Positions 6,200 through 57,741 of a DNA stretch of 64,000 nt are shown one piece after another; positions within the stretch are counted from its first letter, which is position 1; each line of letters begins with the position of its first letter. A model generated the notes under the pieces. It was given only the letters and a program-made list of their open reading frames with translations. It had not been told where the DNA came from and did not search any database. The translations under genes were made by a program, and so were the position numbers. This stretch comes from an uncultured Bacteroidales bacterium (GTDB taxonomy: Bacteria > Bacteroidota > Bacteroidia > Bacteroidales > WCHB1-69), in assembly GCA_900315245.1 (NCBI GenBank), contig OMYJ01000009.1, positions 14,775-78,774 of the forward strand, written 5' to 3'.

Positions 6200-6958
6200 A
6201 TGCGCTACTTCCTCCACTTGGCATACAACGGCTCCGCGTTCTTCGGCTGGCAGATCCAACCGAACCACCCGTCTGTGCAAGAGACATTGGAGACCTGCCT
6301 GTCGCTACTGCTGCACGAGGAGCGCGTGGCGGTCACCGGCTGTGGCCGCACAGATACCGGCGTGAACGCCAGCTCTTTCTACGCTCATTTCGACACCGAG
6401 AAGGATTTCTCCCGAGACGAATGCCGGCAGTTGGTCCACAAGCTCAACAACTTCCTGCCGAAGGAAGTTGTTATCTTCGACCTGTTCGAGGTGGCTCCGG
6501 ACCTACACGCCCGTTTCGACGCCGAGAGCCGCACCTACCAGTACCACGTCTGTACCCGCAAAGATCCCTTCAAGCTCCAGTTCGCTTACCACTGCCACCG
6601 TGCCATCAACGTGGAGAAAATGAACGAGGCGGCGGCATTACTCCTTCAGAACGAAGACTTTACCAGTTTCTCGAAAGTGCATACGCAAGTCAACAACTTC
6701 ATCTGCCACGTTACAGAAGCACACTGGGACCGTGTGGGTGACGAACTCATCTTCACCGTCACGGCAAACCGCTTCCTGCGCAACATGGTCAGGGCGCTCG
6801 TGGGCACTTTGTTAGAAGTCGGCTTCGGCAAACTCACTATCCAAGATTTCCAAAACATTATCAACCAAAAAGATAGATGTGCGGCAAAAACTTCCGTTCC
6901 GGCGAATGCACTATTTTTGACGGAAGTACGTTATCCTCAAATGCTGAATGATGAATGA
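6200..6958 (+). CDS. truA: tRNA pseudouridine(38-40) synthase
   Basis: GWQIQPN, GCGRTDTGV catalytic motif, FLRNMVR. Confidence 0.95.
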   Translation: MRYFLHLAYNGSAFFGWQIQPNHPSVQETLETCLSLLLHEERVAVTGCGRTDTGVNASSFYAHFDTEKDFSRDECRQLVHKLNNFLPKEVVIFDLFEVAPDLHARFDAESRTYQYHVCTRKDPFKLQFAYHCHRAINVEKMNEAAALLLQNEDFTSFSKVHTQVNNFICHVTEAHWDRVGDELIFTVTANRFLRNMVRALVGTLLEVGFGKLTIQDFQNIINQKDRCAAKTSVPANALFLTEVRYPQMLNDE

Positions 6959-7000
6959 TGAATGCTGAATTATGAATTATGAATCATGAATTATGAATTA
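6940..7000. repeat. Heptamer tandem array (AATGATG/AATGCTG/AATTATG, about 8.7 units)
   Basis: Read directly; contains the truA stop codon and ends 2 nt before the next ATG. Confidence 0.9.
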
Positions 7001-7002
7001 AA

Positions 7003-8490
7003 ATGGGTCATTATAGAAACATACTGATAAGCACGATTTATTTGATATTAACGTTAACACTGGCATTCACCCTCCCAAGCTGTCACCGCAACAACAATGT
7101 GGAGGCGAAACTGGAGTTTTCGGCGGACACGGTGTTGTTCGACACAGTGTTCACCACTGTGACGTCAAGCACGCGAACTTTTGCTGTGCGTAACACGACT
7201 GGTTCGCCCGTGGAGGTTGATATCGTATTGGCAGGCGGAAAGCAGTCCTATTACAGCATCAACGTGGATGGCGTGGCGGGCACTGAGTTCCGCAATGTGG
7301 AGATTCCTGCACACGACAGCATTTTCGTCTTCGTGAAGGTAAATATAAATCCATCTGACCAAAATCTGCCCTATTTAGTGACTGATTCGGTAATGTTTTA
7401 TCAGAAAAACTGCACACAAGCGGTACAATTGGTGGCTTTCGGACAGGATGCTCATTTCATCGTCCCAAACCACGGCTCCTCCTCAATGCCTTACAGGATT
7501 ATCGCGCACGCTAACGAGCACGTTCACTGGACCAACGACAAGCCGTGGGTGATTTACGGCTGGGCGGTGGTGGATTCGCTCGGCAAGCTCACCATTGACC
7601 CTGGCACGAAGGTGTATGTACACCATGGTGGCGGCATCTGGGTTTATCGTTACGGCAACATCCACATCAACGGCACATTTGACGAGCCCGTGACCATCAC
7701 CGGTGACCGTCTGGAACCTTTCTTCGACCGTGATTACGCACAATGGAACGCGCTATGGATTAATGAAGGCAGTGAGGACAACCTCATCGAAAACGCCATC
7801 ATCTCAAATTCCTCGTATGGTATTCATTTAGAATCACTTGAAGAATTCACTGGCAACAAAACCATCATCAACAATTCAGTTATCCATAACAACCAAGTGA
7901 TGGGCATCCGGGCGGAGGGCGCTGTCTTGGAGATGAACAACTGCCAAGTCAGCAATAACGGCCAATACAGTCTTGCTTTGATGGTGGGCGACTTCACCTT
8001 CAATCACGTAACCGTGGCAAACTACTTCACACAATCCTCTCGCAAATCACCCGCAGTAGCGCTGACCAACAATTTTGAAAAGACGGAAGTTATTGGTGGT
8101 GCGGCGGTTAATGTTATTTATCTCGGTGATGCAAATGCCACCTTCAACAACTGCATCATCTACGGAACCTTAAGTAATGAATTCGGAACAGGTACAAAAA
8201 GCGGTGCAGAACTAAACTACACGTTCCACAACTGCATCGTCAAAAAAGACTCCATAGAGAACAATCATTTTATCAACTGCACAAACGCAAACCCCAAATT
8301 CATAGCCACTTACGGACAGAATTACAACATTGAGGAAAGTTCCCCTGCTGTGGACGCCGGCATGACCGGCTTGGGCATCAGCACCGACATTCTCGGTCGT
8401 CTGCGCAACGGCATTCCTGATATTGGAGCGTATGAGTATTATCCCATTCCAGAGGAAAAGGCTTATGTCAGAAACAGTGGTCGCTATTGA
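7003..8490 (+). CDS. Lipoprotein with right-handed beta-helix repeats and C-terminal choice-of-anchor-Q-like motif
   Basis: Lipobox-like LPSC after a hydrophobic stretch; Asn-rich beta-helix repeats; SSPAVDAG...DILGRLR..PDIGAYEY. Confidence 0.65.
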   Translation: MGHYRNILISTIYLILTLTLAFTLPSCHRNNNVEAKLEFSADTVLFDTVFTTVTSSTRTFAVRNTTGSPVEVDIVLAGGKQSYYSINVDGVAGTEFRNVEIPAHDSIFVFVKVNINPSDQNLPYLVTDSVMFYQKNCTQAVQLVAFGQDAHFIVPNHGSSSMPYRIIAHANEHVHWTNDKPWVIYGWAVVDSLGKLTIDPGTKVYVHHGGGIWVYRYGNIHINGTFDEPVTITGDRLEPFFDRDYAQWNALWINEGSEDNLIENAIISNSSYGIHLESLEEFTGNKTIINNSVIHNNQVMGIRAEGAVLEMNNCQVSNNGQYSLALMVGDFTFNHVTVANYFTQSSRKSPAVALTNNFEKTEVIGGAAVNVIYLGDANATFNNCIIYGTLSNEFGTGTKSGAELNYTFHNCIVKKDSIENNHFINCTNANPKFIATYGQNYNIEESSPAVDAGMTGLGISTDILGRLRNGIPDIGAYEYYPIPEEKAYVRNSGRY

Positions 8491-8538
8491 TTAATCAGAC
8501 ACCGCGAATAAACAGACATGTGATTTCGGAATAATTAT

Positions 8539-8546
8539 TACCTTTG
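8539..8546 (+). promoter_or_regulatory. Bacteroidetes sigma-70 -7 box (TAnnTTTG)
   Basis: TACCTTTG about 20 nt upstream of the DPP7 ATG. Confidence 0.6.
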
Positions 8547-8567
8547 CATTTTCAAATAAACACCTTT

Positions 8568-14228: not shown

Positions 14229-14235
14229 CCGCCGT

Positions 14236-14310
14236 TTTGAAAGGGGTGCCGTATGGCTGAGATCAGACCCGTTGAACCTGATGCGGATAATGCCGCCGTA
14301 GGGAAATTCA
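14236..14310 (+). ncRNA. TPP (thiamine pyrophosphate) riboswitch
   Basis: GGGGTGCC...GGCTGAGA...ACCC.TTGAACCTGATGCGGATAATGCC.CCGTAGGGAA matches the THI-box consensus; lies between a promoter box and a TonB-dependent receptor. Confidence 0.92.
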
Positions 14311-14371
14311 CAACGTCCTCTTATCCCTCTTTCAGTGTGTTTAACTTATTAATAACCAAACTGTTAGAGCT

Positions 14372-16705
14372 ATGTTTAAAAATGTACAATGTACAATGAA
14401 CAATGTACAAAACACAATGCACGTAGATAATCCCACGAGACTCAAACGGAAACGTGGAATTATCAATTATCAATTATCAATTATCAATTTATTGCTGCTT
14501 TGCATGCCTGTAGCCCTCTTCGCGCAGCAACCGGACACCGTGCAGCAGGGTACGGTGCCGGAGGTGACCATCCAATTCACGAAGCCCACGGTGCAGCAGT
14601 CGGCGAACGTTACCACGATGTCGATGCCGCAGATCCGTGCACAGCAAGGTAACGGCAGCGTCAACAACCTGCTGGAGCTGATGCCCTCCGTGGTGGTCAC
14701 TTCCGAGTCGGGTAACGGGTTGGGCGCCACCTACATGTTCATCCGCGGCATCGACCAGACCCGTATCAACACCACTCTCAACGGCGTGACCATCAACAAC
14801 GCCGAGTCGCAAGGTTCGTGGTTGGTGAACCTGCCCGACATGGGAACTTATATCGAGAATGTGAGCGTGCAGAGCGGTGCCAACACATCCGACGGTAGTA
14901 CTTCCTATGGTGCCCGTGTCGATTTCGTGACCCGCGACATCCCGTTGAAACCTTTTGCCGAGGCACGCACCGCGTATGGTTCCTTTAACACTTTCCACAA
15001 TATGGTGAGCGCGGGTACCGGACTCATCGGCAAGCGTTTCTCCATGCTCGCCTCCTTCTCCGACATCCGCAGCGACGGCTACATCGACTATTCCGGTGTA
15101 CGCCTCAACTCGGGCTTCCTCACCGCGCAACTCGACCTCTATAATTTCAAGAAGAACAAGGACAACGGTAAACTGCGTTTTCATTTGCTCTTTGGCAAGG
15201 AGAATTCCGGCTTGGCTTGGAATGGTGTGCCATACGACAGTCTTGCCACCAACCGCACCTACAATTCCTGCGGCGAATATTACGATGACAACGGCGTGCG
15301 TCACTACTACGAAAATTCCTACGACCACTACACCCAGACTTTCTACCAGTTAGAGTATCTCAAGGATTGGATCCGTCAGGGAGGCCTCCAACACCACAGC
15401 TTGCAGGTGATGCCCTATCTGACGCGTGGCTTCGGCTATTATGAGCAATATAAGGATGACAAAAAAATCAACAAATACGGCTTAGTACAATTGCACGAGG
15501 ATCAGAATCGTACTGACTTGGTTACGCAAAAGTATTTGGACAACTACTACTATGGACTCCATGCACAATACACAGGTTCACAAGTGTTTAAAAACCATAC
15601 CGACCAAGGTTTGCGTTGGGTGGCCGGCGCTGATGTGAGCAACTACAACGGCAACCACTACGGAGACATCGTTTGGGTGCAATCCGACAGGGTGGTGGAG
15701 TGCCCGCCGATGTATGAGTGGTATCGCGGCACTGGCAACAAGTTGCAGTCTAAGGTGTTCGGTAACTTGCGTTACTTTATCAAGAACTTCAGTGTGACGG
15801 GTGAATTGCAGTACCGTCGGGTGGATTACACCATTGACGGCGTTAACGACGAACTGGCTCCTATTCCGCAGGAGTACCACTGGAACTTCGTGAACCCGAA
15901 AGTCGCGTTGCACTATTACCTGCCACGCCCGAAGGTGAAACATAGCTTCGACCTCTCTTTTGCAACGGCCAACCGCGAACCCACCCGCAACGACCTCGTG
16001 GGTGCCCCCGACGACCGCAAACCGGTACCGGAAACCCTTTACGATGTGGAGTTCAGCTATATGAACTATAATGACAAATACTTCTTCAACACTACATTAT
16101 ACGGAATGTACTATAAGAACCAGCTGGTGCGCACTGGCGAGCTTGACCAGACCGGTGACCCGCTCATGACGAATGTTGATAAGAGCTACCGCGTGGGTAT
16201 TGAGTTGTCTGCTGCCTACAAACCTGTGCGTTTCTTCACGTGGCACATCAACGGTGGCTTCAGCCTCAACCGCATCCTCAACTACACACACTATGTCGAA
16301 GATTGGGAGAACGGCGGCTACGTGGAGCAGCAGATCGGCAATACGCCCATCGCCTATTCCCCGAACATCGTGCTGGGCAACGACTTCACCTTCACCCCGC
16401 TCAAGGACTTCAACATCAGCCTGATCACCAAGTTTGTCAGCAAACAGTATCTCAACAACTCCGGCGACGCGGCTTACATTCTGAAACCTTACACATACAC
16501 CAATCTGCGTCTCTCCTACACCTTCCACTTCAAAGCGTTGAAGGATTTGGAACTGTTCCTGAACATCAACAACCTCTTCAACACGAAGTATGAGACCAAT
16601 GCTGCTCTGTATGAAGGTTACTATGGCGGCGAGATTTCGTATGATCCGTACTATTTCCCGCAGGCGGGCATCAATTTCCTCGGTGGCGTGAGAGTCCGGT
16701 TTTAA
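14372..16705 (+). CDS. TonB-dependent receptor, probable thiamine outer-membrane transporter
   Basis: Plug-domain motif IRGIDQTRINTTLNGV, beta-barrel, C-terminal aromatic VRF; TPP riboswitch upstream. Exact start uncertain (14372/14396/14417). Confidence 0.88.
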   Translation: MFKNVQCTMNNVQNTMHVDNPTRLKRKRGIINYQLSIINLLLLCMPVALFAQQPDTVQQGTVPEVTIQFTKPTVQQSANVTTMSMPQIRAQQGNGSVNNLLELMPSVVVTSESGNGLGATYMFIRGIDQTRINTTLNGVTINNAESQGSWLVNLPDMGTYIENVSVQSGANTSDGSTSYGARVDFVTRDIPLKPFAEARTAYGSFNTFHNMVSAGTGLIGKRFSMLASFSDIRSDGYIDYSGVRLNSGFLTAQLDLYNFKKNKDNGKLRFHLLFGKENSGLAWNGVPYDSLATNRTYNSCGEYYDDNGVRHYYENSYDHYTQTFYQLEYLKDWIRQGGLQHHSLQVMPYLTRGFGYYEQYKDDKKINKYGLVQLHEDQNRTDLVTQKYLDNYYYGLHAQYTGSQVFKNHTDQGLRWVAGADVSNYNGNHYGDIVWVQSDRVVECPPMYEWYRGTGNKLQSKVFGNLRYFIKNFSVTGELQYRRVDYTIDGVNDELAPIPQEYHWNFVNPKVALHYYLPRPKVKHSFDLSFATANREPTRNDLVGAPDDRKPVPETLYDVEFSYMNYNDKYFFNTTLYGMYYKNQLVRTGELDQTGDPLMTNVDKSYRVGIELSAAYKPVRFFTWHINGGFSLNRILNYTHYVEDWENGGYVEQQIGNTPIAYSPNIVLGNDFTFTPLKDFNISLITKFVSKQYLNNSGDAAYILKPYTYTNLRLSYTFHFKALKDLELFLNINNLFNTKYETNAALYEGYYGGEISYDPYYFPQAGINFLGGVRVRF
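14381..14489. repeat. Two heptamer arrays inside the receptor N-terminus: AATGTAC-type x6 (14381-14422) and AATTATC x4 (14458-14485)
   Basis: Read directly; translated as NVQCTMNNVQ and INYQLSIIN. Confidence 0.85.
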
Positions 16706-16834: not shown

Positions 16835-18031
16835 ATGAAAACATTACGACAAGAATTTTTAGCCCATATTGGTCAAACCTCGCCAGAGCCGCTCCTTATT
16901 GAGGTGGAACGTGCTGAGGGAGTGTACTTTTACACGCCCGAGGGCAAACGATATTATGATTTGGTTTCCGGTGTGTCTGTGAACAATGTCGGACACGCGA
17001 ACCCGAAAGTGACGGCCGCTGTGCAGCAGCAAGCGGCTGACTATATGCATATTATGGTCTATGGCGAGATGGTGGAGCGCCCGCAGGTGCAATACGCCAC
17101 TCAGATTGCCAACTTGTTGCCTGATCCGTTAGACAGCGTCTATTTCGTCAATTCCGGCAGCGAGGCGGTGGAGGGCGCTTTGAAGCTGGCCAAGCGCTAT
17201 ACTGGGCGGCATAAGATGATGTCCATGCACTGCGCCTATCATGGCTCTAACCATGGTTCCCTCAGCATGATGGCTTCTCCCGAGGGCGACACATGGAAAG
17301 CCCCGTTCCAGCCGCTGCTTCCTGACGTGGGATACCTGTGGTTCAACAACTTCGGCGACCTCAACCGCATTGACGACCAAACCGCCTGCGTATTGGTCGA
17401 GCCGGTACAGGGCGAGGCTGGCGTCATCCCTCCGGAAGACGGCTACCTACAAGCACTCCGTCAGCGTTGCGATGAAACCGGCACTATGCTGATATTCGAC
17501 GAGATACAGACAGGAATGGGACGCACCGGCACCATGTTCGCCATGCAAAAATACGGAGTGACCCCTGACATCGTTTGCCTTGCAAAAGCTTTCGGTGGCG
17601 GAATGCCCCTCGGCGCTTTCATCTCCTCGAAAGAAATAATGGACTCCCTGCAAAGCAATCCCGTGTTAGGCCATATCACTACCTTCGGAGGACATCCCGT
17701 ATGTTGTGCCGCTGGGCTTGCTGCTCTGAATTATATTATAGACAATCAGCTTGTTAAAGATGTTGAAAGAAAAGGGAAACGTTATGAAGATGCGTTGAGG
17801 AACGCTCCGAATGTGTTGGAGATCCGCCGCAGCGGTCTGCTTATGGCCATCGAACTCGGCACCTCCGAGAAACTCTTCAAAATGATGGCGCTTTTCAAAG
17901 AAAACGGTATCATGAGCGACTGGTTCCTCTTCTGCGACACCGCCTTCCGCATCTCCCCGCCGCTGACGATTTCCGATGAGGAGATTGATGACTCTTGCCA
18001 GATAATCCTGGAATGCCTGAACAAACTATAA
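16835..18031 (+). CDS. Class III PLP aminotransferase (acetylornithine aminotransferase-like)
   Basis: NSGSEAVEGALK, EPVQGEAG, FDEIQTGMGRTG, AKAFGGG, TTFGGHP; TATTTTTG box at 16811-16818. Confidence 0.88.
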   Translation: MKTLRQEFLAHIGQTSPEPLLIEVERAEGVYFYTPEGKRYYDLVSGVSVNNVGHANPKVTAAVQQQAADYMHIMVYGEMVERPQVQYATQIANLLPDPLDSVYFVNSGSEAVEGALKLAKRYTGRHKMMSMHCAYHGSNHGSLSMMASPEGDTWKAPFQPLLPDVGYLWFNNFGDLNRIDDQTACVLVEPVQGEAGVIPPEDGYLQALRQRCDETGTMLIFDEIQTGMGRTGTMFAMQKYGVTPDIVCLAKAFGGGMPLGAFISSKEIMDSLQSNPVLGHITTFGGHPVCCAAGLAALNYIIDNQLVKDVERKGKRYEDALRNAPNVLEIRRSGLLMAIELGTSEKLFKMMALFKENGIMSDWFLFCDTAFRISPPLTISDEEIDDSCQIILECLNKL

Positions 18032-18113
18032 CTATAAACTTAGACTTAGACTTAAACTTAGACTTAAACTTTCAACCCGCTTCAATAACCAATAACCCAT
18101 AACCAATAACCAT
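18024..18113. repeat. Hexamer arrays (AACTAT x2, A[AG]ACTT x6) followed by heptamer array (CAATAAC-type x4)
   Basis: Read directly; fills the gap from the aminotransferase stop to the recG ATG. Confidence 0.85.
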
Positions 18114-20353: not shown

Positions 20354-21817
20354 ATGAAAAGATTTTTTACTACAATGTTATTATGTTGTCTGACAGCGGC
20401 TTTCATACAGGCGCAGCCGGTGACACTGACGTTCACTGGGCGCGATGCTAGCAATCAATATATTCCTTTGACCCGTGTGGTCGCCAGCAACCTCACTAAG
20501 GGCTGGCAGGAGACGCTAGTGTGGCCCGACACCGTGTTGGTGATGACAGCCACGGGCATCGGGGATTTTGAGACGTTTCAGGAAACGTCTCTACGGCTGT
20601 CGCAAAACAACCCCAATCCGTTTGACGGTACCACGTTCGTAAATCTGCAGGTGGCGGAAAAGGGCGATGTGGCGGTGGAAATCACCGACATTGCCGGACG
20701 GGTTGTAGAGACGTTTCATGAAACGTCTCTACAAGCAGGGTGCCATCCGTTACGTATCACCCTTTCCTCGCCCGGTCTCTATTTTCTGACAGCGCGCCAG
20801 GACGGTCGCACCGCCTCGGTGAAGATGGTGAACAGAGGCAACGGTGGCGGCAATGCCGTTGCGTTTGCCGGCATTGTAGAGACGTTGCACGCAACGTCTC
20901 TACCGCAACCCAAAATTGCCCACCGAGGTGCTACCGACAACCCGTTCGACCTCGGCGACCAGATGGAATATGTGGGTTACGCTCTCATCAACTTTGAGGA
21001 GGTGGAGAGCGACCACGTAATGCAGGTACAGGATGCCTCGCAGACGGTGGTACTGACGTTCCCCAACTCGCAAAGTGACGGCTTACCGTGCCCCGCCACT
21101 CCCACAGTGACCGACCACGAGGGTAACGTGTATGCCACGGTGCAGATTGGCGACCAGTGCTGGATGCGCGACAACCTGCGGACCACCACCTCGCCGAGCA
21201 CGGGAACATATCTCATCCCAGCCGCGGGCACAGATTACACCTGCGCGGGCAAACAGGCGTTCTGGTACAACAACGACTCAGCGACGTATGCTCCGATGAA
21301 CTACGGCCTGCTGTACAACTGGAACGCTGCGGTGGACACGTTCAACACGGCCTACGGGGAGACGAGTGTGAACACGGACTACAACAATGCCGTATTCGTG
21401 ACCTTCAGCGGCCACCGCCGGGGCATCTGCCCGGCGGGCTGGCATCTGCCGAGCGATGCGGAGTTGACAGCACTCACCGACTATGTGAGCAGCCAGAGCG
21501 GATACATCTTTGGTGGCAACAGCAGTTTCATCGCCAAGGCGTTGGCCTCCACGGAAGGGTGGAACACAATCGATAGCACTTGTGCGGTGGGCAACGACCC
21601 GAGCTTGAACAATGCCACGGGTTTTTCCGCCGTTCCGGCAGGCTACTGCAGCGGTTCGTCGTTCGAAACCGCAGGCCACAGTGCCTACTTCTGGTCCTCC
21701 ACGGAGTACGGTATGATCCATGCGTGGATCCGCGGCCTGGACTACAACTACGCGGACGTGGTCAGGTACGAGAGCCTCAAGGGCTACGGCTATTCCGTCC
21801 GCTGCCTCCGCGATTAA
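20354..21817 (+). CDS. Secreted protein with an internal T9SS-CTD-like Ig domain and a C-terminal FISUMP (Fibrobacter succinogenes major paralogous) domain
   Basis: Signal peptide; LSQNNPNPF...GLYFL CTD-like segment; DHEGNVYATVQIGDQCWMRDNLR, YGLLYNW, CPAGWHLPS, GYSVRCLRD; TACTTTTG box at 20321-20328. Confidence 0.85.
   Translation: MKRFFTTMLLCCLTAAFIQAQPVTLTFTGRDASNQYIPLTRVVASNLTKGWQETLVWPDTVLVMTATGIGDFETFQETSLRLSQNNPNPFDGTTFVNLQVAEKGDVAVEITDIAGRVVETFHETSLQAGCHPLRITLSSPGLYFLTARQDGRTASVKMVNRGNGGGNAVAFAGIVETLHATSLPQPKIAHRGATDNPFDLGDQMEYVGYALINFEEVESDHVMQVQDASQTVVLTFPNSQSDGLPCPATPTVTDHEGNVYATVQIGDQCWMRDNLRTTTSPSTGTYLIPAAGTDYTCAGKQAFWYNNDSATYAPMNYGLLYNWNAAVDTFNTAYGETSVNTDYNNAVFVTFSGHRRGICPAGWHLPSDAELTALTDYVSSQSGYIFGGNSSFIAKALASTEGWNTIDSTCAVGNDPSLNNATGFSAVPAGYCSGSSFETAGHSAYFWSSTEYGMIHAWIRGLDYNYADVVRYESLKGYGYSVRCLRD
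20567..20594. repeat. REP palindrome, in frame in CDS (FETFQETSL)
   Basis: TTTGAGACGTTTCAGGAAACGTCTCTAC. Confidence 0.8.
20703..20734. repeat. REP palindrome, in frame in CDS (VETFHETSL)
   Basis: Perfect 32-bp palindrome TTGTAGAGACGTTTCATGAAACGTCTCTACAA. Confidence 0.85.
20876..20903. repeat. REP palindrome, in frame in CDS (VETLHATSL)
   Basis: GTAGAGACGTTGCACGCAACGTCTCTAC. Confidence 0.85.
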
Positions 21818-21863
21818 AAAAACAGACCCCAAAAGCGGGGAGCCGACGATAGGAGGCCTTTTC

Positions 21864-21890
21864 AATGTAGAATGTACAATGTAGAATGTT
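21864..21890. repeat. Heptamer array AATGTA[GC], about 4 units
   Basis: Read directly; same unit family as 14381-14422. Confidence 0.75.
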
Positions 21891-29410: not shown

Positions 29411-29467
29411 GTCTTACGTCTTACGTCTCACATCTTCAATAATCCATAACCTATAACCCATAACCAT
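29411..29467. repeat. Two abutting heptamer arrays (GTCTTAC-type, about 3.7 units; CCATAAC-type x4)
   Basis: Read directly; ends 5 nt before the dcp ATG. Confidence 0.8.
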
Positions 29468-29472: not shown

Positions 29473-31515
29473 ATGAACCCTTTCACCCAAAACTGGACCA
29501 CTTTGCGGCAAACTCCGCCGTTCAATGAAATCAAAACCGAACATTATCTGCCTGCGTTTGAGCAAGCTATCGTTGCCGCGAAGCAGGATATAGAAAACAT
29601 TGTCAATCAGAAAGATGCGCCTGATTTTGAGAATACTGTCGTGGCGTTGGACCGTGCGGGAGAACAACTCGCCACCGTTGCCGATATTTTTTTCAACCTT
29701 TTGGAGTGTATTGGCGATGACGAGATGCAGGCCGTGGCGGAGAAGGTGCAGCCGCTATTGGTGCAGTACGAGAACGAAGTCTATCAACACCCCGGATTAT
29801 TCGCCCGCGTCAAGGCTGTGTATGACCGCCAAAAGCAGGAGGCTTTCCTGACTGGTGCGGACAAGATACTGTTGGACAAGACTTACGACGCTTTCGTGTC
29901 GGGCGGCGCAAATTTGCCGGAGGAGCAGAAAAAGCGTTTCGCCGAATTGAGTTTGGAACTGGCCACCCGACAACTTGACTTCGGGCAGCGTGCGTTGAAA
30001 GCCACCAATGCATGGTTCGTACATCTCGAAAAGGAGTCTCCGCGACTTGCGGGCATTCCCGAAAGTGCTCGCGCCCTCGCCGCACAAAAAGCATCCGAAA
30101 AAGGGTTGGAGGGCTATGTCTTCGACCTTTCCGCGCCCGACGTGAACACGGTGCTGACATACGCCGATGACCGTTCTCTGCGCGAGGAAGTCTATATGCA
30201 TTCCAGCAAGAAGGCATACGGCGGGGAGTTTGACAATTGCGACAATATCAAAGCCATTCTGAAATGCCGTGAAGAGATTGCGCATTTGCTTGGATATAAG
30301 CATTATGCAGACTATGCCTTGCGGAATCGCATGGCGAAAGATTTAGCGCATGTCTATAAACTTCTTGACGAATTGAAAGCCGCCGCCTTGCCCACCGCTA
30401 AACAGGAAATCGAAGAGCTGAGGCAATTTGCTCAAAAACAAGGCTTTAACGATACTTTCCAGCGTTGGGATCTGAGTTATTACATGGAAAAGCTCCGTCA
30501 GGAAAAATTCCAGTTAGAGACCGAGAAATTGAAAGTTTATTTTCCGCTGAATCAGGTAATTGAAGGTGTTTTCGGATTAGCCACCACGCTATATGACCTG
30601 CGTTTTGTAAAAACGAAAGATATTCAGCCGTATCATCCTGATGTTCAAGTATATGAGGTCTATCGCGGCGAACAGTTCATGGCGGTGCTCTATCTCGACT
30701 TCCACCCGCGCAGCACGAAACGCAGCGGTGCATGGATGACGGAGTTCCGCGACCAGCATGAGGACGCCAACGGAAACGACATCCGCCCGTGGGTGAGCCT
30801 GGTGATGAATTTCACCCCGCCGACGAAAGAACAACCAGCCCTGCTGACGGTCAACGAGGTCAACACGTTCCTGCACGAGTTCGGACACGCTTTGAACGGG
30901 ATGCTTTCCGAGGTGAAATACGCCACGCTTTCGGGCACGCACTCGCCCCGCGATTTCGTGGAACTGCCTTCGCAGCTAAACGAGAATTGGCTTACGGAGC
31001 CGGAATTCCTGCGCACTTTCGCCCGCCACTACCAGACCGGCGAGCTAATTCCTGACGAATATGTCGCGCAGCTGAAGAATATGAACAAGTTCATGGCGGG
31101 ATATTTGTGCGTGAGGCAGCTCTCTTTCGGCTATTTAGACATGATGTGGCATACGATGGCTGCCGATGAAGTGGATGACATTCTTCGTTTGGAACGTTCC
31201 ATATTTGACACGGTGGAAGTGCTGCCGGTGGTGCCGGGAGCCTGCATGAGCACCTCCTTCGGCCATCTCTTTTCGGGTGGCTACGCTGCCGGTTATTACG
31301 GCTACAAGTGGGCGGAAATGCTTGAGGCAGACGCTTTTGCATTGTTCAAAGAGAATGGTGTGATGAACCATGATACCGCGCAAAGGTACTTGGAGACCAT
31401 CCTTTCCAAGGGCGGCTCTGTGGATGCCATGGAGATGTTCGTCAATTTCCGCGGCCGCGAACCGAAAATCGATGCATTACTGGAACGTGACGGTTTGTTG
31501 GCTGTTAGCTGTTAG
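29473..31515 (+). CDS. dcp: M3 family metallopeptidase (peptidyl-dipeptidase Dcp-like)
   Basis: KRSGAWM, HEFGH zinc motif, DFVELPSQ, GYYGYKWAE. Confidence 0.92.
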   Translation: MNPFTQNWTTLRQTPPFNEIKTEHYLPAFEQAIVAAKQDIENIVNQKDAPDFENTVVALDRAGEQLATVADIFFNLLECIGDDEMQAVAEKVQPLLVQYENEVYQHPGLFARVKAVYDRQKQEAFLTGADKILLDKTYDAFVSGGANLPEEQKKRFAELSLELATRQLDFGQRALKATNAWFVHLEKESPRLAGIPESARALAAQKASEKGLEGYVFDLSAPDVNTVLTYADDRSLREEVYMHSSKKAYGGEFDNCDNIKAILKCREEIAHLLGYKHYADYALRNRMAKDLAHVYKLLDELKAAALPTAKQEIEELRQFAQKQGFNDTFQRWDLSYYMEKLRQEKFQLETEKLKVYFPLNQVIEGVFGLATTLYDLRFVKTKDIQPYHPDVQVYEVYRGEQFMAVLYLDFHPRSTKRSGAWMTEFRDQHEDANGNDIRPWVSLVMNFTPPTKEQPALLTVNEVNTFLHEFGHALNGMLSEVKYATLSGTHSPRDFVELPSQLNENWLTEPEFLRTFARHYQTGELIPDEYVAQLKNMNKFMAGYLCVRQLSFGYLDMMWHTMAADEVDDILRLERSIFDTVEVLPVVPGACMSTSFGHLFSGGYAAGYYGYKWAEMLEADAFALFKENGVMNHDTAQRYLETILSKGGSVDAMEMFVNFRGREPKIDALLERDGLLAVSC

Positions 31516-31642
31516 CTGTTAGCTTTTGGCTATTGGCTTAAACAATAACTATAACAATAACTATAACTATGACTATAACTATTGCCTGATCACTGATCAC
31601 TTTTGCCTATTGCCTATTGCCTTTTGCCTTTTGCCTTTTGCT
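31501..31642. repeat. Compound array: GCTGTTA-type 7-mers x5, AACTAT-type 6-mers x7, TGATCAC x2, T[AT]TTGCC x6
   Basis: Read directly; includes the dcp stop codon. Confidence 0.9.
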
Positions 31643-36863: not shown

Positions 36864-36870
36864 AAACATC

Positions 36871-36896
36871 AGCCAACAGCCAATAGCTAAAAGCCA
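36871..36896. repeat. Heptamer array AGCCAAC/AGCCAAT/AGCTAAA (reverse complement of the GCTGTTA family)
   Basis: Read directly, between convergent genes. Confidence 0.7.
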
Positions 36897-38041: not shown

Positions 38042-38096
38042 GCTGTTGGCTGTTAGCTGTTGGCCTTGGCTTTTAGCCATTAGCTTTTGGCTATTT
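38042..38096. repeat. Heptamer array GCTGTT[AG]/GCTTTT[AG], about 8 units
   Basis: Read directly, downstream of the tRNA-Gly terminator. Confidence 0.85.
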
Positions 38097-38133: not shown

Positions 38134-38141
38134 ATGGATTG

Positions 38142-38214
38142 AGCGGAAAACGAGACTCGAACTCGCGACCCCAACCTTGGCAAGGTTGTGCTCTACCAAC
38201 TGAGCTACTTCCGC
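38142..38214 (-). tRNA. tRNA-Gly(GCC)
   Basis: GCGGAAGTAGCTCAGTTGGTAGAGCACAACCTTGCCAAGGTTGGGGTCGCGAGTTCGAGTCTCGTTTTCCGCT; 73-nt cloverleaf, CCA not encoded. Confidence 0.96.
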
Positions 38215-40225: not shown

Positions 40226-41521
40226 ATGATACCCCGTTATTCGCGTCCGGAGATGAGCGCCGTCTGGACTGAGGAAAACAAATTCGGCGCCTATTTGAAA
40301 GTGGAAATCGAAGCCGCCGCCGCGTGGAGCCAACTCGGCGTGATTCCGGCTGAAGACGTTGAGAAACTGCGCACAAAGGCCACCTTCGACGTACAACGCA
40401 TATACGAAATCGAAAAGGAGACGCGCCACGACATCGTGGCGTTCACCCGCGCCGTGAGCGAGAGCCTCGGCGACGAGAAGAAGTGGGTGCACTACGGCCT
40501 CACCTCCACCGATGTGGTCGATACCGCCAACGGCTACCTCATCAAGCAAGCCAACAACATCCTGCGCAAGGATCTCCAGCGGTTCATCGAGATTCTCAAG
40601 AAACGCGCATACGAGTTCAAGGACACGCCCTGCATCGGACGCACGCACGGCGTGCACGCCGACATCACCGCCCTCGGGCTGAAGTGGGCGTTGTGGTTCG
40701 AGGAGATGCGCCGCAACATCGAACGTTTCGAGATGGCCGCCGCCGATGTGGAGTGCGGCAAAATCAGCGGTGCCGTGGGCAACTTCGCCAACACCCCACC
40801 GTTCGTGCAGGACTATGTCTGCGAGCAACTCGGCATTCATTCCGCCCGCATCTCCACGCAGGTGCTGCAACGCGACCGCCACGCCCACTACATGGGCACT
40901 CTCGCGCTCATCGCTTCCACCATGGAGCAGATGGCCATCGAGGTGCGCCACTGGCAACGCACGGAACTCCGCGAGGCTGAGGAGGCCTTCGGCAAAGGGC
41001 AGAAAGGTTCCTCCGCGATGCCCCACAAACGCAACCCCATCGGCAGCGAGAATATGTGCGGATGCGCGAGAATCCTCCGCGGATATATGGTCAGCGCCTA
41101 CGAGAACATCCCGCTTTGGCACGAGCGCGACATCTCCCACTCCTCTGCCGAGCGCATCATGCTCCCCGATGCCACCATCCTGCTCGACTATATGCTCAAT
41201 CGCTTCGGCAACATCTTGGAGAACCTCGTCGTTTTCCCTGAGAACATGCTGAAAAACATCTACTTGACCCACAAAGTTATCTTCGCGCAGCGCGTCATGA
41301 CCGCCCTCATCAACAAGGGCTTCTCCCGCGAAAGCGCATACGACCTCGTGCAGCCCATCGCCATGAAGGCTTGGTTCGAAGGACAGGACTACAAGGAACT
41401 CCTCTCCCAAAACGAAACTGTCATGGCTCACTTCACCCCCGAAGAACTCGACCAGTGCTTCACGTTGGAATACTACCTGAAGCAAGTGCCCGCCATTTTC
41501 GAACGGGTCTTTGGCAATTAA
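40226..41521 (+). CDS. purB: Adenylosuccinate lyase (Bacillus/Firmicutes-type)
   Basis: [42 protein letters not shown]; TATCTTTG box at 40197-40204. Confidence 0.96.
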
Positions 41522-41600
41522 CAATTAGCAATTAGTAGTTAGCAGTTAGCAGTTGCCGTTCTAACATGAACTGCTAACTGCTAACTACTAACTGCTAACT
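41514..41600. repeat. Inverted pair of heptamer arrays (GCAGTTA-type x6 / AACTGCT-type x4.5) forming a long hairpin
   Basis: 41532-41554 is the exact reverse complement of 41569-41591. Confidence 0.9.
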
Positions 41601-41630
41601 AAAAAAATAACCACCATTAAAAATCGCATT

Positions 41631-42287: not shown

Positions 42288-42311
42288 GATCTATTGCCTA
42301 TTGCCTAAAAA

Positions 42312-46152: not shown

Positions 46153-46156
46153 AATG

Positions 46157-46229
<73 letters not shown>

Positions 46230-48151: not shown

Positions 48152-48248
48152 CTGTCGGCTGTTAGCTGTTAGCTGTTAGCCTTTAGCTATTGGAAAAATA
48201 ACTAAAGGCCAATAGCCAAAAGCTAAAAGCCAAAGGCCAAAAGCTAAA
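48151..48248. repeat. Inverted pair of heptamer arrays (GCTGTTA-type x6 / CAAAAGC-type x6)
   Basis: Read directly; fills the htrA-rpoD gap from stop to start. Confidence 0.88.
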
Positions 48249-54748: not shown

Positions 54749-54817
54749 CAATAACTATAACTATAACCAGTTCGTTAAACAATCGCAAATCGTAAACCGT
54801 AAACCGTAAATCGTAAA
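54747..54817. repeat. AACTAT-type hexamers (about 3) plus AA[TC]CGTA-type heptamers x5
   Basis: Read directly; runs from the ABC stop to just before the next ATG. Confidence 0.8.
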
Positions 54818-55795: not shown

Positions 55796-56344
55796 ATGTC
55801 TTTAACAACAAAAAAGAAACAAGAGATTTTTGACTACTATTCGGAAAATGGCTTTCATCACTCCACCGAACAAATAGTAAAACATTTAAAAATCTGCCAC
55901 AAAACTTTCTTTAATCGTTACGGAACCAAATCCCAGTCCATAGAAATAGCTTGGGAATATTGGCAAAACTTGTGCAAGGAAAAATGGTCACGCATTTTGG
56001 AAAACTGCAACCATTGCGTTGAAGAGTTGCTCATGATTCTCTATCACATGTACAAAACACGGGAATTTGACACTCATTATTACGAACTCACACGCGATAG
56101 CCGCAAATATCTCGATACCAGCTCCTACTTCTACTCCATAGTGTATTCTATTTTGGAAAAGGGGAAAAAGTGTTTTCATGTAAAGGAGAATCTGAACACA
56201 GATGCCTACACTTCTTTTGTCCTTAACAACATGTTTCTTATTGATTTTGAGAAAGATAAGAGGCGTATTACGTTGAAATTCATCTTGAATGCGGCTTTGA
56301 CCGAACGCGGGATGGAACTTTTCATGGAAACGCCCTTCGCTTAA
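55796..56344 (+). CDS. Putative TetR-like regulator
   Basis: N-terminal HTH-like segment (EQIVKHLKICHKTFFNRYGTK); size about 180 aa. Confidence 0.5.
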   Translation: MSLTTKKKQEIFDYYSENGFHHSTEQIVKHLKICHKTFFNRYGTKSQSIEIAWEYWQNLCKEKWSRILENCNHCVEELLMILYHMYKTREFDTHYYELTRDSRKYLDTSSYFYSIVYSILEKGKKCFHVKENLNTDAYTSFVLNNMFLIDFEKDKRRITLKFILNAALTERGMELFMETPFA

Positions 56345-56448
56345 TACGTCTGTCCTTCTGATTCACCTCGACTTATTAAACTTTTTTCTTTTACAGCAGT
56401 TGTTTTCTTTCAACTGAAATGTGTATTTTTGCCGTCAATTTTAAAACG

Positions 56449-57708
56449 ATGAAAAAAGCAGTTTTATTCTTGGGGATACTTTTACTTATGACAGCAGGTC
56501 GGGCCAGCTATCTGCTGATTCCCATGGATTTGGCACAAAGCAACCATTTGAAAGCTTACGGGATCGCTTACTTCGCTGTATCCCATCAAATTGACATGAG
56601 CTGGCTGCTGAACTATCGGGGAGGCAGTTTCATGTGCCCGTATAATGGGAGCGTGGAAAACGAATGCTTGGTCCGCGGTGTCTCCTTCGAAATCCTTGCT
56701 GACCTTCAGGCCACGCAAATCCTCAACGAAATCGCCGTGATTGAGAACAACATGAACGAAATCCGTTTGACTAAAGAGCCTAAAATCGCCGTTTACTCAC
56801 CAAAAAACAAACTCCCCTGGGACGACGCCGTCACGTTGGTGTTGACATACGCTGAAATCCCCTACACGGTGATTTATGACGAAGAGGTCATCAAAGGCGA
56901 ACTTCCCAAATATGACTGGTTACACCTTCATCATGAAGATTTCACTGGACAATATGGGAAATTCTGGGCGAACTACCGCAACGCCAAATGGTATCAGGAC
57001 GATGTGCGGGAAAACGAGGAACGTGCATCGCAGCTGGGATTCTCGAAAGTGTCGCAAATGAAACTTGCCGTGGCTAAAGGCATCCGTGACTTTGTGGCAG
57101 GCGGAGGCTATCTGTTCGCCATGTGCTCCGGTCCAGACAGTTATGATATTGCACTTGCTGCCGAAGGAGTGGATATTTGCGAAACCATGTTCGACGGCGA
57201 CCCTATGGATCCGCAAGCCCAAAGCAAACTCAACTACGACAACTGCTTTGCTTTCACTGATTTCAGAATTGAAACCAACCCCTACGTTTATGAAGTTTCC
57301 AACATTGACGTGAACCCGTCACAACATATCCAAAACAAATCCCACGACTATTTCACCCTCTTCGAGTTTTCCGCCAAATGGGATCCTGTTCCTACAATGC
57401 TGTGCCAGAATCACTTGCAAGTAATTCCCGGATTCATGGGACAGACCACCGCATTCCGGAAAGAACTCATTAAACCAACGGTGACCATTATGGGAGAATG
57501 CGCCTATTTTAATGAAGCTCGCTATATTCATGGAGAATACGGGAAAGGCACTTGGACTTTCTACTCAGGCCACGATCCGGAAGACTACCAGCATCTGGTC
57601 AACGATGCCCCCACAGATCTGAATCTGTTCCCTAATTCCGCAGGTTATCGTCTGATTCTCAATAACGTACTCTTCCCTGCCGCGAAAAAGCAGCAGCAGA
57701 AGACGTAA
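56449..57708 (+). CDS. Conserved Bacteroidetes exported protein (family often labelled asparagine synthetase B)
   Basis: Signal peptide, HLKAYG, PWDDAV, WLHLHHEDFTGQYGKF, FAMCS, GHDPEDY. Confidence 0.7.
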   Translation: MKKAVLFLGILLLMTAGRASYLLIPMDLAQSNHLKAYGIAYFAVSHQIDMSWLLNYRGGSFMCPYNGSVENECLVRGVSFEILADLQATQILNEIAVIENNMNEIRLTKEPKIAVYSPKNKLPWDDAVTLVLTYAEIPYTVIYDEEVIKGELPKYDWLHLHHEDFTGQYGKFWANYRNAKWYQDDVRENEERASQLGFSKVSQMKLAVAKGIRDFVAGGGYLFAMCSGPDSYDIALAAEGVDICETMFDGDPMDPQAQSKLNYDNCFAFTDFRIETNPYVYEVSNIDVNPSQHIQNKSHDYFTLFEFSAKWDPVPTMLCQNHLQVIPGFMGQTTAFRKELIKPTVTIMGECAYFNEARYIHGEYGKGTWTFYSGHDPEDYQHLVNDAPTDLNLFPNSAGYRLILNNVLFPAAKKQQQKT

Positions 57709-57724
57709 TACGTGAGGGCGTATC

Positions 57725-57741
57725 AGCTAAAAGCCAACAGC
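57725..57741. repeat. Short heptamer array AGCTAAA AGCCAAC AGC
   Basis: Same family and same convergent-gene context as 36871-36896. Confidence 0.55.

Follow-up and report, generated by a model that had tools for sequence, protein, structure and literature searches.

The genome of an uncultured rumen Bacteroidales bacterium (3.05 Mb, 99.8% complete) carries a genome-wide, non-random system of tandem arrays with a period of seven nucleotides, which are packed against gene boundaries and follow a strand rule. These arrays are probably heptanucleotide long simple-sequence repeats (SSRs), made by slippage and filtered by selection.

A genome-wide system of seven-nucleotide arrays

TRF returned 58 rows in the window (the whole stretch of 64,000 nt that was analysed), 19 of them with period 7 and corresponding to 18 non-overlapping arrays; 841 non-overlapping period-7 arrays were found genome-wide. 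The original prediction had described dispersed tandem arrays at 16 positions, 14 of which match TRF arrays (6940, 14381, 14458, 18024, 21864, 29411, 31501, 32804, 36871, 38042, 41514, 42291, 48151 and 54747), and the other two, 16773 and 57725, are degenerate traces of 2-3 units under the TRF threshold. All eight units that it quoted were found again, AATCGTA as a variant within the array at 54787-54817, and Pfam agrees with the gene names given (TruA, class-III aminotransferase, M3 peptidase, AzlD, PurB, HtrA-like protease and ABC ATPase). The arrays are listed below, unstranded unless marked.

6940..7000: (AATGCTG/AATGATG/AATTATG)n, about 8 copies (TRF, Pfam); contains the truA stop (6956-6958) and spans the whole gap to 2 nt before ATG 7003; also present, with different unit variants, in the same-genus genome G008
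14381..14419, plus strand: (AATGTAC)4.3, inside a TonB-dependent receptor ORF, 9 nt past its conserved ATG (14372), with a TPP riboswitch upstream
14458..14489, plus strand: (AATTATC)4.6, same receptor ORF, coding for part of the signal-peptide region
18030..18071: (ACTTAG/ACTTAA)n, period 6/12/18, overlapping the aminotransferase stop (18029-18031)
18083..18112: (CAATAAC)4.3, sense strand A/C-rich, 5 nt before the recG ATG 18118
21863..21889: (AATGTAG)3.7, in a convergent gap, 46 nt after the stop at 21817
29411..29436: (GTCTTAC)3.7, with a GTAGAGACG..CGTCTCTAC hairpin upstream at 29330
29439..29465: (ATAACCC/ATAACCT)3.9, 7 nt before the M3 peptidase ATG 29473
31496..31539: (TTGGCTG/TTAGCTG)n, with the M3 peptidase stop (31513-31515) inside
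31541..31582: (AACTAT)7, period 6, mid-gap after the M3 peptidase
31586..31641: (CTGATCA)2.3 then (CTTTTGC/CTATTGC)6, in the gap after the M3 peptidase; other copy numbers in L002, L003, L007, L009 and L017
32804..32834: (ACGATGAG)3.9, period 8, with the azlD stop (32808-32810) inside, ending 1 nt short of the convergent gene's stop
36870..36896: (CAGCCAA)3.9, filling a 36-nt convergent gap
38042..38064: (GCTGTTG)3.3 plus a degenerate continuation, on the start side of a minus-strand CNNM gene; the strand leaving this gene is G>C
41514..41554: (GCAATTA/GCAGTTA)5.4, with the purB stop (41519-41521) inside; left arm of an inverted pair
41569..41600: (AACTGCT)4.6, reverse complement of the left arm
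42291..42307: (CTATTGC)2.4, between the upp stop (42287) and ATG 42312, 4 nt from the latter
48158..48188: (GCTGTTA)4.4, beginning 6 nt after the htrA-like stop (48151)
48202..48248: (AAAAGCC)6.4, 3 nt before the sigma-70 ATG 48252; partly complementary to 48158..48188
54751..54767: (ATAACT)2.8, period 6, beginning 2 nt after the ABC ATPase stop (54748)
54787..54817: (AAACCGT/AATCGTA)4.4, 3 nt before ATG 54821

Comparison with shuffled DNA revealed a large period-7 excess, with 894 rows in the whole genome against 65 in a Markov-5 shuffle and 737 rows in intergenic DNA (366,614 nt) against 13 (Markov-3) or 11 (Markov-5). Perfect period-7 runs of at least two copies numbered 800, compared to 32 in the control. 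The predicted preference for period 7 proved to be a sharp tuning, as enrichment over the Markov controls reached about 60-fold at period 7, compared to some 10-15-fold at periods 6 and 8. At least half of the row was intergenic in 778 of the 894 cases, though 87% of the genome is coding; gene coordinates came from a crude in-house caller based on ORFs and codon usage (2,393 genes covering 86.9% of bases), so that start positions are only approximate. Arrays occupy 8.1% of intergenic bases and are present in 566 of 1,663 gaps of at least 30 nt (34%), and the midpoint falls inside a called gene for 111 of the 841, 43 of these at the gene 3' end. Between 161 and 168 distinct units were counted genome-wide, the commonest being ATTGGTT, AATTATG, AATTATC and GGCTTTT, and the same units recur across many loci and across the genus.

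Placement and strand polarity at gene boundaries

Placement was assayed on 597 arrays in co-directional gaps, with random positions in each array's own gap ±20 nt as the null. A distance from stop to array of -10 to +5 nt was found for 34.7% of arrays (null 14.8%) and a distance from array to start of 1 to 10 nt for 19.6% (null 8.5%), supporting the predicted location at stops and just before starts, while overlap with the start codon was depleted (6.5% compared to 19.6%). Overall, adjacency to gene ends was about 2.3 times that of random placement. In the window, the contacts of at least seven arrays with an upstream stop (truA, aminotransferase, M3 peptidase, azlD, purB, htrA and ABC) hold; several arrays had also been said to end 2-5 nt before the next ATG, and this distance is found at five of six ATGs, with 7 nt at 29473. 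The proposal that the units supply stops in all three frames is arithmetically sound for stop-carrying units and does not extend to a general driver. Units carrying a stop make up 73% among stop-abutting arrays, compared to 49% when the opposite strand is read, and ATTGGTT, the unit seen most often on the stop side, is stop-free in every frame.

At starts and stops alike, G>C holds on the strand that reads outward from the closest gene end. On the start side, 105 arrays within 0-15 nt of the gene were G>C on the strand leaving it and 6 on the opposite one, and beyond 15 nt the numbers were 112 and 29. Arrays overlapping a stop gave 140 against 35, and on the stop side the polarity decayed with distance, with 94:22 for arrays 0-15 nt away and 40:41 for those farther off than 15 nt. 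This polarity is present in each of the four types of gene orientation, shows dyad symmetry around the gap, is kept in gaps with a single array (138:38 and 53:112), and is repeated in close relatives (25:1 at starts, 20:8 at stops).

Translation initiation in Bacteroidota is known to operate without a Shine-Dalgarno sequence. The strand read toward the gene is A/C-rich, G-poor and almost devoid of ATG, GTG and TTG: an NTG codon occurs on it in 11 of 125 start-proximal arrays, and on the opposite strand in 84 of 125. Folding predictions for start-side arrays give the sense RNA less structure than its complement (-0.029 and -0.064 kcal/mol per nt, respectively). Array-free leaders are already A-rich and G-poor, and Bacteroidetes initiation regions are described in PMC6847099 as A-rich, weakly structured and AUG-depleted. 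The start-side bias fits these known leader constraints. In array-free DNA after stops the G>C bias is absent (C 0.206, G 0.199), and arrays show it even in leaderless convergent gaps (20:7 and 25:8). Stop-codon content was considered as a cause of the stop-side bias and rejected, since 84 of 138 arrays lying 0-15 nt after a stop carry a sense-strand stop codon and 76 of 138 an antisense-strand one.

Variation between relatives and alternative readings

The read data compared were assembled contigs of DNA and RNA runs, not raw reads. Three changes of whole units were seen among samples and relatives: an additional CAGCCAA behind 36869 in one DNA run and one RNA run, an additional TTGCCTG behind 42293 in one DNA run (+7 nt in the upp-side array), and an additional AGCCAAT at 36892 in a relative. 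At three orthologous junctions compared over 5-20 relatives, arrays differed in copy number, had turned over in their units, had given way to a hairpin or were absent, and related species have other units at a shared junction. Five relatives have a common array order after the M3 peptidase, with different copy numbers, and others have a hairpin or nothing; in the gap before its ATG (29473), 11 of 18 relatives have a period-7-type TRF array, with differing units. Between close relatives, gaps with arrays vary in length from 35 to 318 nt, compared to only a few nt for array-free gaps; of 102 orthologous gaps without arrays, 98 remain so. The genome also has a separate GTAGAGACG..CGTCTCTAC hairpin family, which at orthologous junctions alternates with arrays.

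Inverted copies are commoner among neighbouring arrays than expected: of 159 pairs, 23 qualify at a Hamming distance of at most 1 (6.7 expected) and 51 at a distance of at most 2 (25.7 expected). In about one third of the pairs the two arrays are inverted copies and fold into a long imperfect hairpin, as do the arms 41514..41554 and 41569..41600, with a predicted stem of about 20 bp and -44.6 kcal/mol; this pair is absent or replaced in other strains. This excess, together with the dyad-symmetric polarity and the purB-upp gap, which is two-armed here and in G008 holds a two-armed array of different sequence, speaks for two-armed hairpin elements like REPIN/REP clusters, inserted or copied whole into intergenic gaps and leaving single arrays as decayed halves. 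REP units are palindromic, 20-40 nt long and multiplied as entire units, and the arrays share with REP, BIME and REPIN their abundance in intergenic DNA and the ability to form hairpins. Nevertheless, such an origin seems unlikely, as about two thirds of neighbouring pairs are not complementary, whole-gap folding is only modestly stronger than in a half-preserving shuffle (median z -1.17 with two arrays and -0.58 with none, n=45 each), single-array gaps are polarised too, and the units are 7-nt direct repeats with no internal palindrome. Moreover, strains differ by single-unit indels, one unit per step, with no whole-element insertions. The scars or landing pads of a mobile cassette, as originally proposed, would account for the junction location and for the recurrence of units at many loci and across the genus, but we consider them very improbable: the three junctions revealed no cargo genes between or in place of arrays in the 5-20 relatives, the genes on either side are ordinary housekeeping ones whose order is conserved, and the differences between strains are whole 7-nt units. 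Contingency loci, in which a one-unit change would shift the reading frame or alter a promoter (phase variation), are suggested by the two arrays inside the 5' coding region of the TonB-dependent receptor, whose ORF stays open through species-specific arrays (753-781 aa) in 13 of 15 loci, one of the remaining two being cut by a contig end and the other out of frame. A general role of this kind is nonetheless quite unlikely given how few array midpoints lie inside called genes, many of those being 3'-terminal, and that the arrays in the window flank the housekeeping genes truA, purB, upp, recG and sigma-70.

A possible though doubtful alternative is that the arrays are functional RNA modules of untranslated regions, presenting a long, unstructured, C>G, start-codon-free tract on any transcript that runs toward a gene. 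On the start side this tract would be a ribosome landing zone; at the gene 3' end it would load Rho and halt antisense or read-through transcription, and after the stop the G/U-rich sense tract would escape Rho loading. The tie of polarity to gene boundaries, with its stop-side decay, its identity in all four gene arrangements, and the lower structure predicted for start-side sense RNA than for its complement are in line with this, and the same strand rule in two other phyla suggests a common cause. The genome encodes Rho (630 aa), and rut sites are described in PMC9499579 as C>G, G-poor and unstructured. RNA-library contigs extend into arrays, but contigs cannot show transcript ends. Against such modules, the inward strand of array-free gene 3' ends is not biased to C>G, which gives no sign that such tracts are generally needed; close relatives lack arrays at the same junctions with no visible replacement, and a genome sample from the same genus has about 9-fold fewer arrays. 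In addition, according to PMC5314796, Rho binds adjacent YC dinucleotides that have to be set apart by spacers of 7 nt or more, which does not predict a 7-nt period as the Rho geometry. The suggestion of an RNA element bound by an oligomeric protein is not supported either: CSD and RRM, the two families that the literature puts forward as heptamer binders or that are plausible on other grounds, were not found in the 99.8%-complete genome, which removes two candidate binders.

Probable slippage and known heptamer repeats

Under the favoured reading of long SSRs, a class that also takes in the cyanobacterial STRRs and the heptamers of Xanthomonas and Nostoc, replication slippage in a 7-nt register would most likely generate and alter the arrays, which would gain and lose whole units while the unit sequence drifts. 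They would persist only at weakly constrained DNA, that is, between genes, over stop codons and in C-terminal tails, with one case of persistence inside coding DNA, the signal-peptide region. Inverted pairs may come from inverted duplication or template switching, and selection that filters array orientation may produce the polarity. The evidence consists of the expected products of slippage, not slippage itself, and a polymerase footprint as source of the 7-nt register is a published conjecture (PMC4679880, PMC4692102). MutS and MutL are encoded, so mismatch repair is not lost. The unit vocabulary is narrow: 834 arrays use 161 distinct units, where random local seeding gives a mean of 514 (minimum 484), and the top unit is found in 72 arrays, where the same null reaches 22 at most. 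Simple slippage on arbitrary seeds therefore falls short of a full account, which must also include either selection acting on the unit sequence or the spread of units from locus to locus.

Cyanobacterial STRRs are tandem heptamers that belong to a few families, are scattered over intergenic DNA and are not known to have a function. By analogy, the arrays would fit this already known kind of repeat; the host phylum is another one, and the likeness is one of description. The original prediction drew this comparison aptly, but in finding no explanation in Bacteroidales it overlooked the predominance of heptanucleotides among 5-11-nt SSRs in many prokaryotes (Mrazek 2007, via PMC4679880, PMC4692102), for which polymerase slippage is the proposed origin in the same accounts. 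The arrays resemble the SSRs of Mrazek, Guo and Shah (2007) in the over-representation of 5-11-nt repeats, the peak at 7 and the non-coding bias; the ten richest genomes of that survey, as relayed in PMC4679880, are from Burkholderia, cyanobacteria, actinobacteria and Xanthomonas, with no Bacteroidales among them.

The strand rule itself is already reported for the G-rich heptamers of Xanthomonas and Nostoc, GGGAATC and GGGGA(C/T)T (Rehm et al. 2015, PMC4692102). As described there, these are also tandem repeats of 7 nt with a strong intergenic bias, most common where the neighbouring genes are co-directional; within 50 bp of a stop or over it the G-rich strand is the sense strand, and upstream of ORFs it is the antisense strand. 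Many convergent (inverted) pairs are a further point in common, as is the extensive variation in length and sequence that close species show at shared junctions. Unlike those heptamers, the units found here have no G-tracts, so that no G-quadruplex is possible, and they reach 841 arrays in 3.05 Mb of a Bacteroidales host. Within the uncultured rumen genus of this host, one subclade carries the arrays at very high density.

TAACTGA direct repeats were described in marine Beggiatoaceae, cyanobacteria and five Bacteroidetes (MacGregor 2015, PMC4679880). Unlike that system with its one dominant unit, many units occur here, TAACTGA in none of 834 arrays, and its candidate binder, a cold-shock protein, was not found in this genome. 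Both are intergenic heptamer direct repeats; according to the same paper most TAACTGA repeats lie a few nt upstream of start codons in fixed orientation, and in some Bacteroidetes other heptamer arrays share the same gaps.

Heptamer arrays in the window and across the genome

In the window, TRF called 58 repeat entries, 19 of them with period 7, corresponding to 18 non-overlapping period-7 arrays. The original prediction had described short tandem arrays, mostly of 7-nt units, at gene junctions anchored on stop codons. Of its 16 named positions, 14 coincide with TRF arrays, and all eight of its quoted repeat units were recovered; at the other two positions, 16773 and 57725, only degenerate traces of 2–3 units were present, under the TRF threshold. 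Pfam matches upheld its gene names (TruA, class-III aminotransferase, M3 peptidase, AzlC/AzlD, PurB, HtrA-like protease and ABC ATPase), and the genes beside the window arrays are ordinary housekeeping genes. Contact with stop codons also held: arrays enclose the stops of truA, the aminotransferase, the M3 peptidase, azlD and purB, and those of the htrA-like and ABC genes precede their arrays by 6 and 2 nt, respectively. At the opposite gene end, arrays finish 2–7 nt 5' of the ATGs at 7003, 18118, 29473, 42312, 48252 and 54821, much as had been proposed. Further features of the window are listed below.

Features of the window
14232–14323: TPP riboswitch (RF00059, 68.1 bits), preceding a TonB-dependent receptor with a conserved ATG at 14372
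16733, 20705, 20876 and 29330: GTAGAGACG..CGTCTCTAC hairpins
38141–38214, minus strand: tRNA-Gly(GCC)
46156–46229, minus strand: tRNA-Thr(CGT)
54787–54817: array containing the AATCGTA unit as a variant

In the array behind truA (6955–7005), the units chain overlapping ATGA start/stop motifs into mini-ORFs of 5–7 codons, each TGA overlapping the next ATG, from the truA stop to a few nucleotides before the ATG of the next gene. Genome-wide, a sense-strand ATG was found in 25% of 338 stop-side arrays, versus 7% on the antisense strand. Directly upstream of truA (3522–6191), an 890-aa protein carries Type III restriction-enzyme res-subunit, DEAD helicase and C-terminal endonuclease domains.

The source genome (3.05 Mb in 21 contigs; hereafter G000) yielded 2,833 TRF rows, including 894 at period 7, 264 at period 14 and 99 at period 21, and a fifth-order Markov shuffle of the genome gave 65 period-7 rows versus the 894 real ones. 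Genes were predicted by a crude method based on ORFs and codon usage (2,393 genes covering 86.9% of bases). By these predictions, 778 of the 894 period-7 rows have half or more of their length in intergenic DNA, in a genome of which 87% is coding. The 366,614 nt of intergenic DNA held 737 period-7 rows, compared to 13 and 11 in Markov-3 and Markov-5 shuffles, so the predicted enrichment of period 7 over shuffled intergenic DNA is a clear excess. Neighboring periods were less enriched, about 10–15-fold for periods 6 (75 rows vs ~5 in the control) and 8 (150 vs ~15), and about 3-fold for periods 9–10. Perfect period-7 runs of at least two copies numbered 800, against 32 in the control. After removal of overlaps, 841 period-7 arrays remained, with 2–42 copies each and a total of 29,101 nt; arrays of period 7, 14 or 21 make up 8.1% of intergenic bases, and 566 of the 1,663 gaps of at least 30 nt bear an array. 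A preferred length of four units was considered and discarded: TRF copy numbers peak at 4, yet perfect runs fall monotonically, and the peak may thus be a detection effect.

The arrays show the traits of heptanucleotide long simple sequence repeats (LSSRs, 5–11-nt unit) that were tested, namely head-to-tail tandem organization, an excess peaking at 7, bias to non-coding DNA and change by whole units. They are a genuine and very dense case of a bacterial repeat of known type.

Placement and orientation at gene boundaries

Placement was evaluated for 597 arrays in co-directional gaps, each put at random within its own gap ± 20 nt as a null. Array starts fell between −10 and +5 nt of the upstream stop in 34.7% of cases (14.8% in the null), and array ends lay 1–10 nt before the downstream start in 19.6% (8.5%); overlap with the start codon was depleted, at 6.5% of arrays versus 19.6%. 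The junction placement originally claimed is thus real and above random expectation. Arrays were similarly frequent per gap in co-directional (557 in 1,587 gaps), divergent (86 in 272) and convergent (83 in 270) arrangements, which together with the placement excess indicates that both gene ends attract or retain arrays. Per kb, densities were 2.39 in co-directional, 1.47 in convergent and 1.12 in divergent gaps.

The orientation of the arrays follows a simple rule: read outward (5' to 3') from whichever gene end is nearest, start or stop, the strand carries more G than C (G>C). The rule was kept in all four gene arrangements, and the counts are given below.

Orientation of period-7 arrays (counts of conforming and opposite arrays, unless stated)
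Start-proximal, C>G on the sense strand: 119:25 in co-directional gaps, 14:4 in divergent gaps
Beginning after the stop, G>C on the sense strand: 68:14 co-directional, 20:7 convergent
Overlapping the stop, G>C on the sense strand: 150:39 co-directional, 25:8 convergent
Outgoing strand G>C, stop side: 140:35 overlapping the stop, 94:22 at 0–15 nt
Outgoing strand G>C, start side: 105:6 at 0–15 nt, 112:29 beyond 15 nt
Top strand, G>C:C>G: 232:48 in the left third of gaps, 57:200 in the right third

Gaps with a single array obeyed the rule (138:38 and 53:112), and it was weaker for arrays more than 40 nt from both gene ends. Nearly all unit families conformed, for example ATTGGTT (64:8), CTGTTGG (23:2) and ATTGGCT (21:1). 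Periods 9–13 showed no such rule, and periods 6 and 8 little of it. Close relatives gave 25:1 at starts and 20:8 at stops, many of these loci sharing junctions, and in more distant tiers the counts were small and mixed. Start-like codons (ATG/GTG/TTG) were present on the gene-ward strand of only 11 of 125 start-proximal and 18 of 138 stop-proximal arrays, versus 84 of 125 and 87 of 138, respectively, on the opposite strand.

The vocabulary of units was counted irrespective of strand in the 834 arrays with a consensus unit of exactly 7 nt. These use 161 distinct units, compared to a mean of 514 (minimum 484) for 7-mers drawn from array-free intergenic DNA, and the most frequent unit occurs 72 times versus a null maximum of 22. 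With such a restricted vocabulary, simple slippage on arbitrary seeds is not a sufficient explanation. The units do not share a strong consensus, as rotational alignment yielded a weak T-T-G-R-H-T-W (4.14 bits vs 3.46 when shuffled). The 50 commonest units listed contain no G-tract longer than GG, and TAACTGA was the unit of none of the 834 arrays.

Variation between strains and relatives

Relatives recovered through the M3 peptidase are metagenome-assembled genomes of uncultured Bacteroidales from ruminant and other herbivore guts. Period-7 density was 2.2 per 10 kb in 19 close loci, 0.95 in 28 loci at 58–73% protein identity and 0.69 in 33 more distant loci, with about 0.2 in the shuffled genome. 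Load also differed about 9-fold within one genus: a 120-kb sample (L108–L113) of G004, a same-genus genome, contained 0.33 period-7 rows per 10 kb versus 2.9 in G000. Candidate counts from a first look, a rough proxy, were 129–206 in array-rich and 26–88 in array-poor genomes of the genus. The array-poor genomes are mostly smaller (2.1–2.4 Mb; one of 3.0 Mb) and more distant by nucleotide identity, by which measure the rich and poor genomes appear to form separate subclades; any correlation of gene content with array load would consequently lack independence. Exact copies of the AATGTAC and AATTATC arrays of the window were found at many loci of same-genus genomes, and among the matches listed for 12 sampled genomes of other families none fell on array segments.

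Relatives share a conserved hairpin upstream of the M3 peptidase, and in most of them tandem units follow just before the ATG. The units themselves differ, being ATAACCC in G000 and CTTAAAC, CTTTAAC, the 8-mer CACTAAAC or about 25 copies of CCCTAAA/CCTTAAA in relatives. Downstream of the same gene, five relatives have the array order of G000 with other copy numbers; at this place others show either a GTAGAGACG..CGTCTCTAC hairpin or next to nothing. Among 17 gaps of the window region, those free of arrays in G000 were array-free in 98 of 102 orthologous copies and of near-constant length; two traceable array-bearing gaps had arrays in 19 of 35 copies and ranged from 35 to 318 nt. In the alignment with another same-genus genome, G008 (36,085 nt aligned at 90.2% identity), breaks occurred at arrays, and one array (36892) differed by exactly +7 nt. 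The purB–upp gap (41514–41600) bears a two-armed inverted array in both genomes, made of unrelated units (GCAGTTA/TAACTGC in G000 vs GACTTNN/NNAAGTC in G008).

Strain variants were sought in public runs from ruminant-gut samples; the 24 runs listed consist of assembled contigs throughout. An additional CAGCCAA was found behind 36869 and an additional TTGCCTG behind 42293, and one contig variant skips 41516–41602. Cross-joints between arrays in these contigs (e.g., 31539 to 36870) were read as shared repeat units and not as rearrangements. Contigs from RNA libraries extend into arrays; as assembled contigs, they carry no information on transcript ends, strand or level. The two tRNA genes explain the very high summed contig depth in their bins of the read layout.

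Microsatellites evolving by slippage are expected to show just these changes: indels of whole units, drift of the unit sequence, and loss or replacement. The original prediction had suggested, as one option, scars or landing pads of a mobile cassette; this reading is not supported, given that no gene-sized cargo was found at the three orthologous junctions compared and that strains differ by whole-unit indels.

The GTAGAGACG..CGTCTCTAC hairpin forms a family of its own, counting 39 complete copies plus 135 half-sites genome-wide; a T-run often follows. In some relatives it stands after the M3 peptidase where G000 has heptamer arrays, and the array units GAGACGT, AAGACGT and AAGTCTC resemble its arm. 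The hairpins at 20705 and 20876 lie inside the called ORF 20354–21817, so the 5' part of that gene may be miscalled.

Origin of the arrays, their orientation, and known heptamer systems

The arrays most likely originated by slippage, and a subset most likely arose by inverted duplication alongside it. Their orientation is probably filtered by constraints at gene ends, one on leaders, which is understood, and one at 3' ends. The start-side half of the strand rule has a grounded explanation in leader constraints. Initiation regions of Bacteroidetes, as described in the sections of PMC6847099 consulted, lack a Shine-Dalgarno sequence, need upstream adenines and low structure, and are depleted of AUG. 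Array-free leaders of G000 are already A-rich and G-poor; wrongly oriented arrays would breach these requirements for A-rich, weakly structured and AUG-poor leaders. Moreover, arrays end a few nucleotides before the ATG and leave the proximal leader positions untouched.

On the stop side, local composition does not account for the orientation, since array-free DNA after stops has C at 0.206 and G at 0.199. Backup stops in three reading frames, which the original prediction had pointed out, fail as a driver because stop codons are about equally frequent on both strands (84 of 138 post-stop arrays in sense vs 76 of 138 in antisense). Complementarity to a leader-side arm was likewise rejected: near-exact inverted copies occurred in only 23 of 159 neighboring pairs, although this exceeds the 6.7 expected, as do the 51 pairs at distance ≤2 (25.7 expected). 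Nor is a whole-gap hairpin the general architecture, folding being just modestly above a shuffle that preserves each half. As for proteins, cold-shock-domain or RRM proteins were dismissed as heptamer binders, as neither PF00313 nor PF00076 had a match in the 99.8%-complete genome, with a Bacteroides thetaiotaomicron control positive for both. Mismatch-repair loss is contradicted by the presence of MutS (three matches) and MutL. Rho is encoded, and the spacer between its YC dinucleotides is given as at least 7 nt in the portion of PMC5314796 available; such a minimum does not predict a 7-nt period, and the geometry of the Rho primary site was discarded as its reason.

A broader reading, which we regard as rather improbable, takes the strand rule as the mark of a general orientation-coded process at bacterial gene boundaries instead of lineage-specific junk. 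In one variant, the arrays may provide long, unstructured, C>G and start-codon-free tracts on every transcript heading into a gene, which would let ribosomes land at 5' ends and, at 3' ends, trap antisense or read-through transcription by loading Rho. In the other, they may be laid by polar DNA synthesis extending G/T-rich 3' ends toward the gap center.

The arrays were also compared with described repeats. Heptanucleotides were reported as the most abundant class of long simple repeats in most prokaryotic genomes, and a link to the polymerase footprint has been proposed (Mrazek 2007, as cited in the consulted parts of PMC4679880 and PMC4692102). The extracts of PMC4692102 (Rehm 2015) describe GGGAATC in Xanthomonas and GGGGA(C/T)T in Nostoc as strongly intergenic and preferring co-directional genes. 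In that account each Xanthomonas genome has 70–75 convergent pairs, close species differ extensively, and no function had been identified. As in that account, in G000 the G-rich strand is sense at or after stops and antisense upstream of ORFs, inverted pairs are frequent, and density is higher in co-directional than in divergent gaps. Unlike those heptamers, the G000 units have no G-tracts, form no quadruplexes and fall outside GGGAATC/GGGGAYT. The strand rule therefore does not depend on quadruplexes, which speaks for a more general cause and against one based on quadruplexes. TAACTGA repeats lie just upstream of start codons in fixed orientation and occur in five Bacteroidetes, according to the parts of MacGregor 2015 (PMC4679880) consulted; G000 has no TAACTGA arrays, and the cold-shock domain proteins suggested in that work to bind them are missing from it. 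Cyanobacterial STRR heptamers are defined by specific units and a cyanobacterial host, and the host of the arrays described here belongs to the Bacteroidales. REP/REPIN elements are palindromic 20–40-nt units copied whole and linked to a RAYT transposase, whereas the arrays consist of 7-nt direct repeats that have no internal dyads, and just some of the arrays pair as inverted arms.

No report of heptamer arrays in rumen Bacteroidales was found in repeat-directed literature searches, supplements of the cited papers apart, which does not prove that none exists. The present analysis adds numbers for the strand rule relative to gene boundaries and shows that it agrees with the Xanthomonas/Nostoc report; the rule of quadruplex-forming heptamers thereby extends to units without quadruplex ability. 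No function has been accepted for heptamers, the most frequent long simple repeats of many bacteria, nor is there an accepted reason for their 7-nt register, and G000 offers an unusually dense case with many unit families and many sequenced relatives, including an array-poor genome of the same genus. Annotators of rumen Bacteroidales genomes should be prepared for such arrays, at which short-read assemblies break and start-codon calls go astray, and which change C-terminal tails and, in one case, a signal peptide.

That signal peptide belongs to the TonB-dependent receptor behind the TPP riboswitch, where two heptamer arrays lie inside the ORF directly after the ATG. At 13 of 15 loci, G000 included, the ORF stays open for 753–781 aa through species-specific arrays; of the other two, one is cut by a contig end (380 aa) and L090, a locus from a relative, is out of frame (39 aa). 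The receptor may be phase-variable and thiamine-related, and only here do the arrays have the outward form of a contingency locus; most of them flank housekeeping genes.
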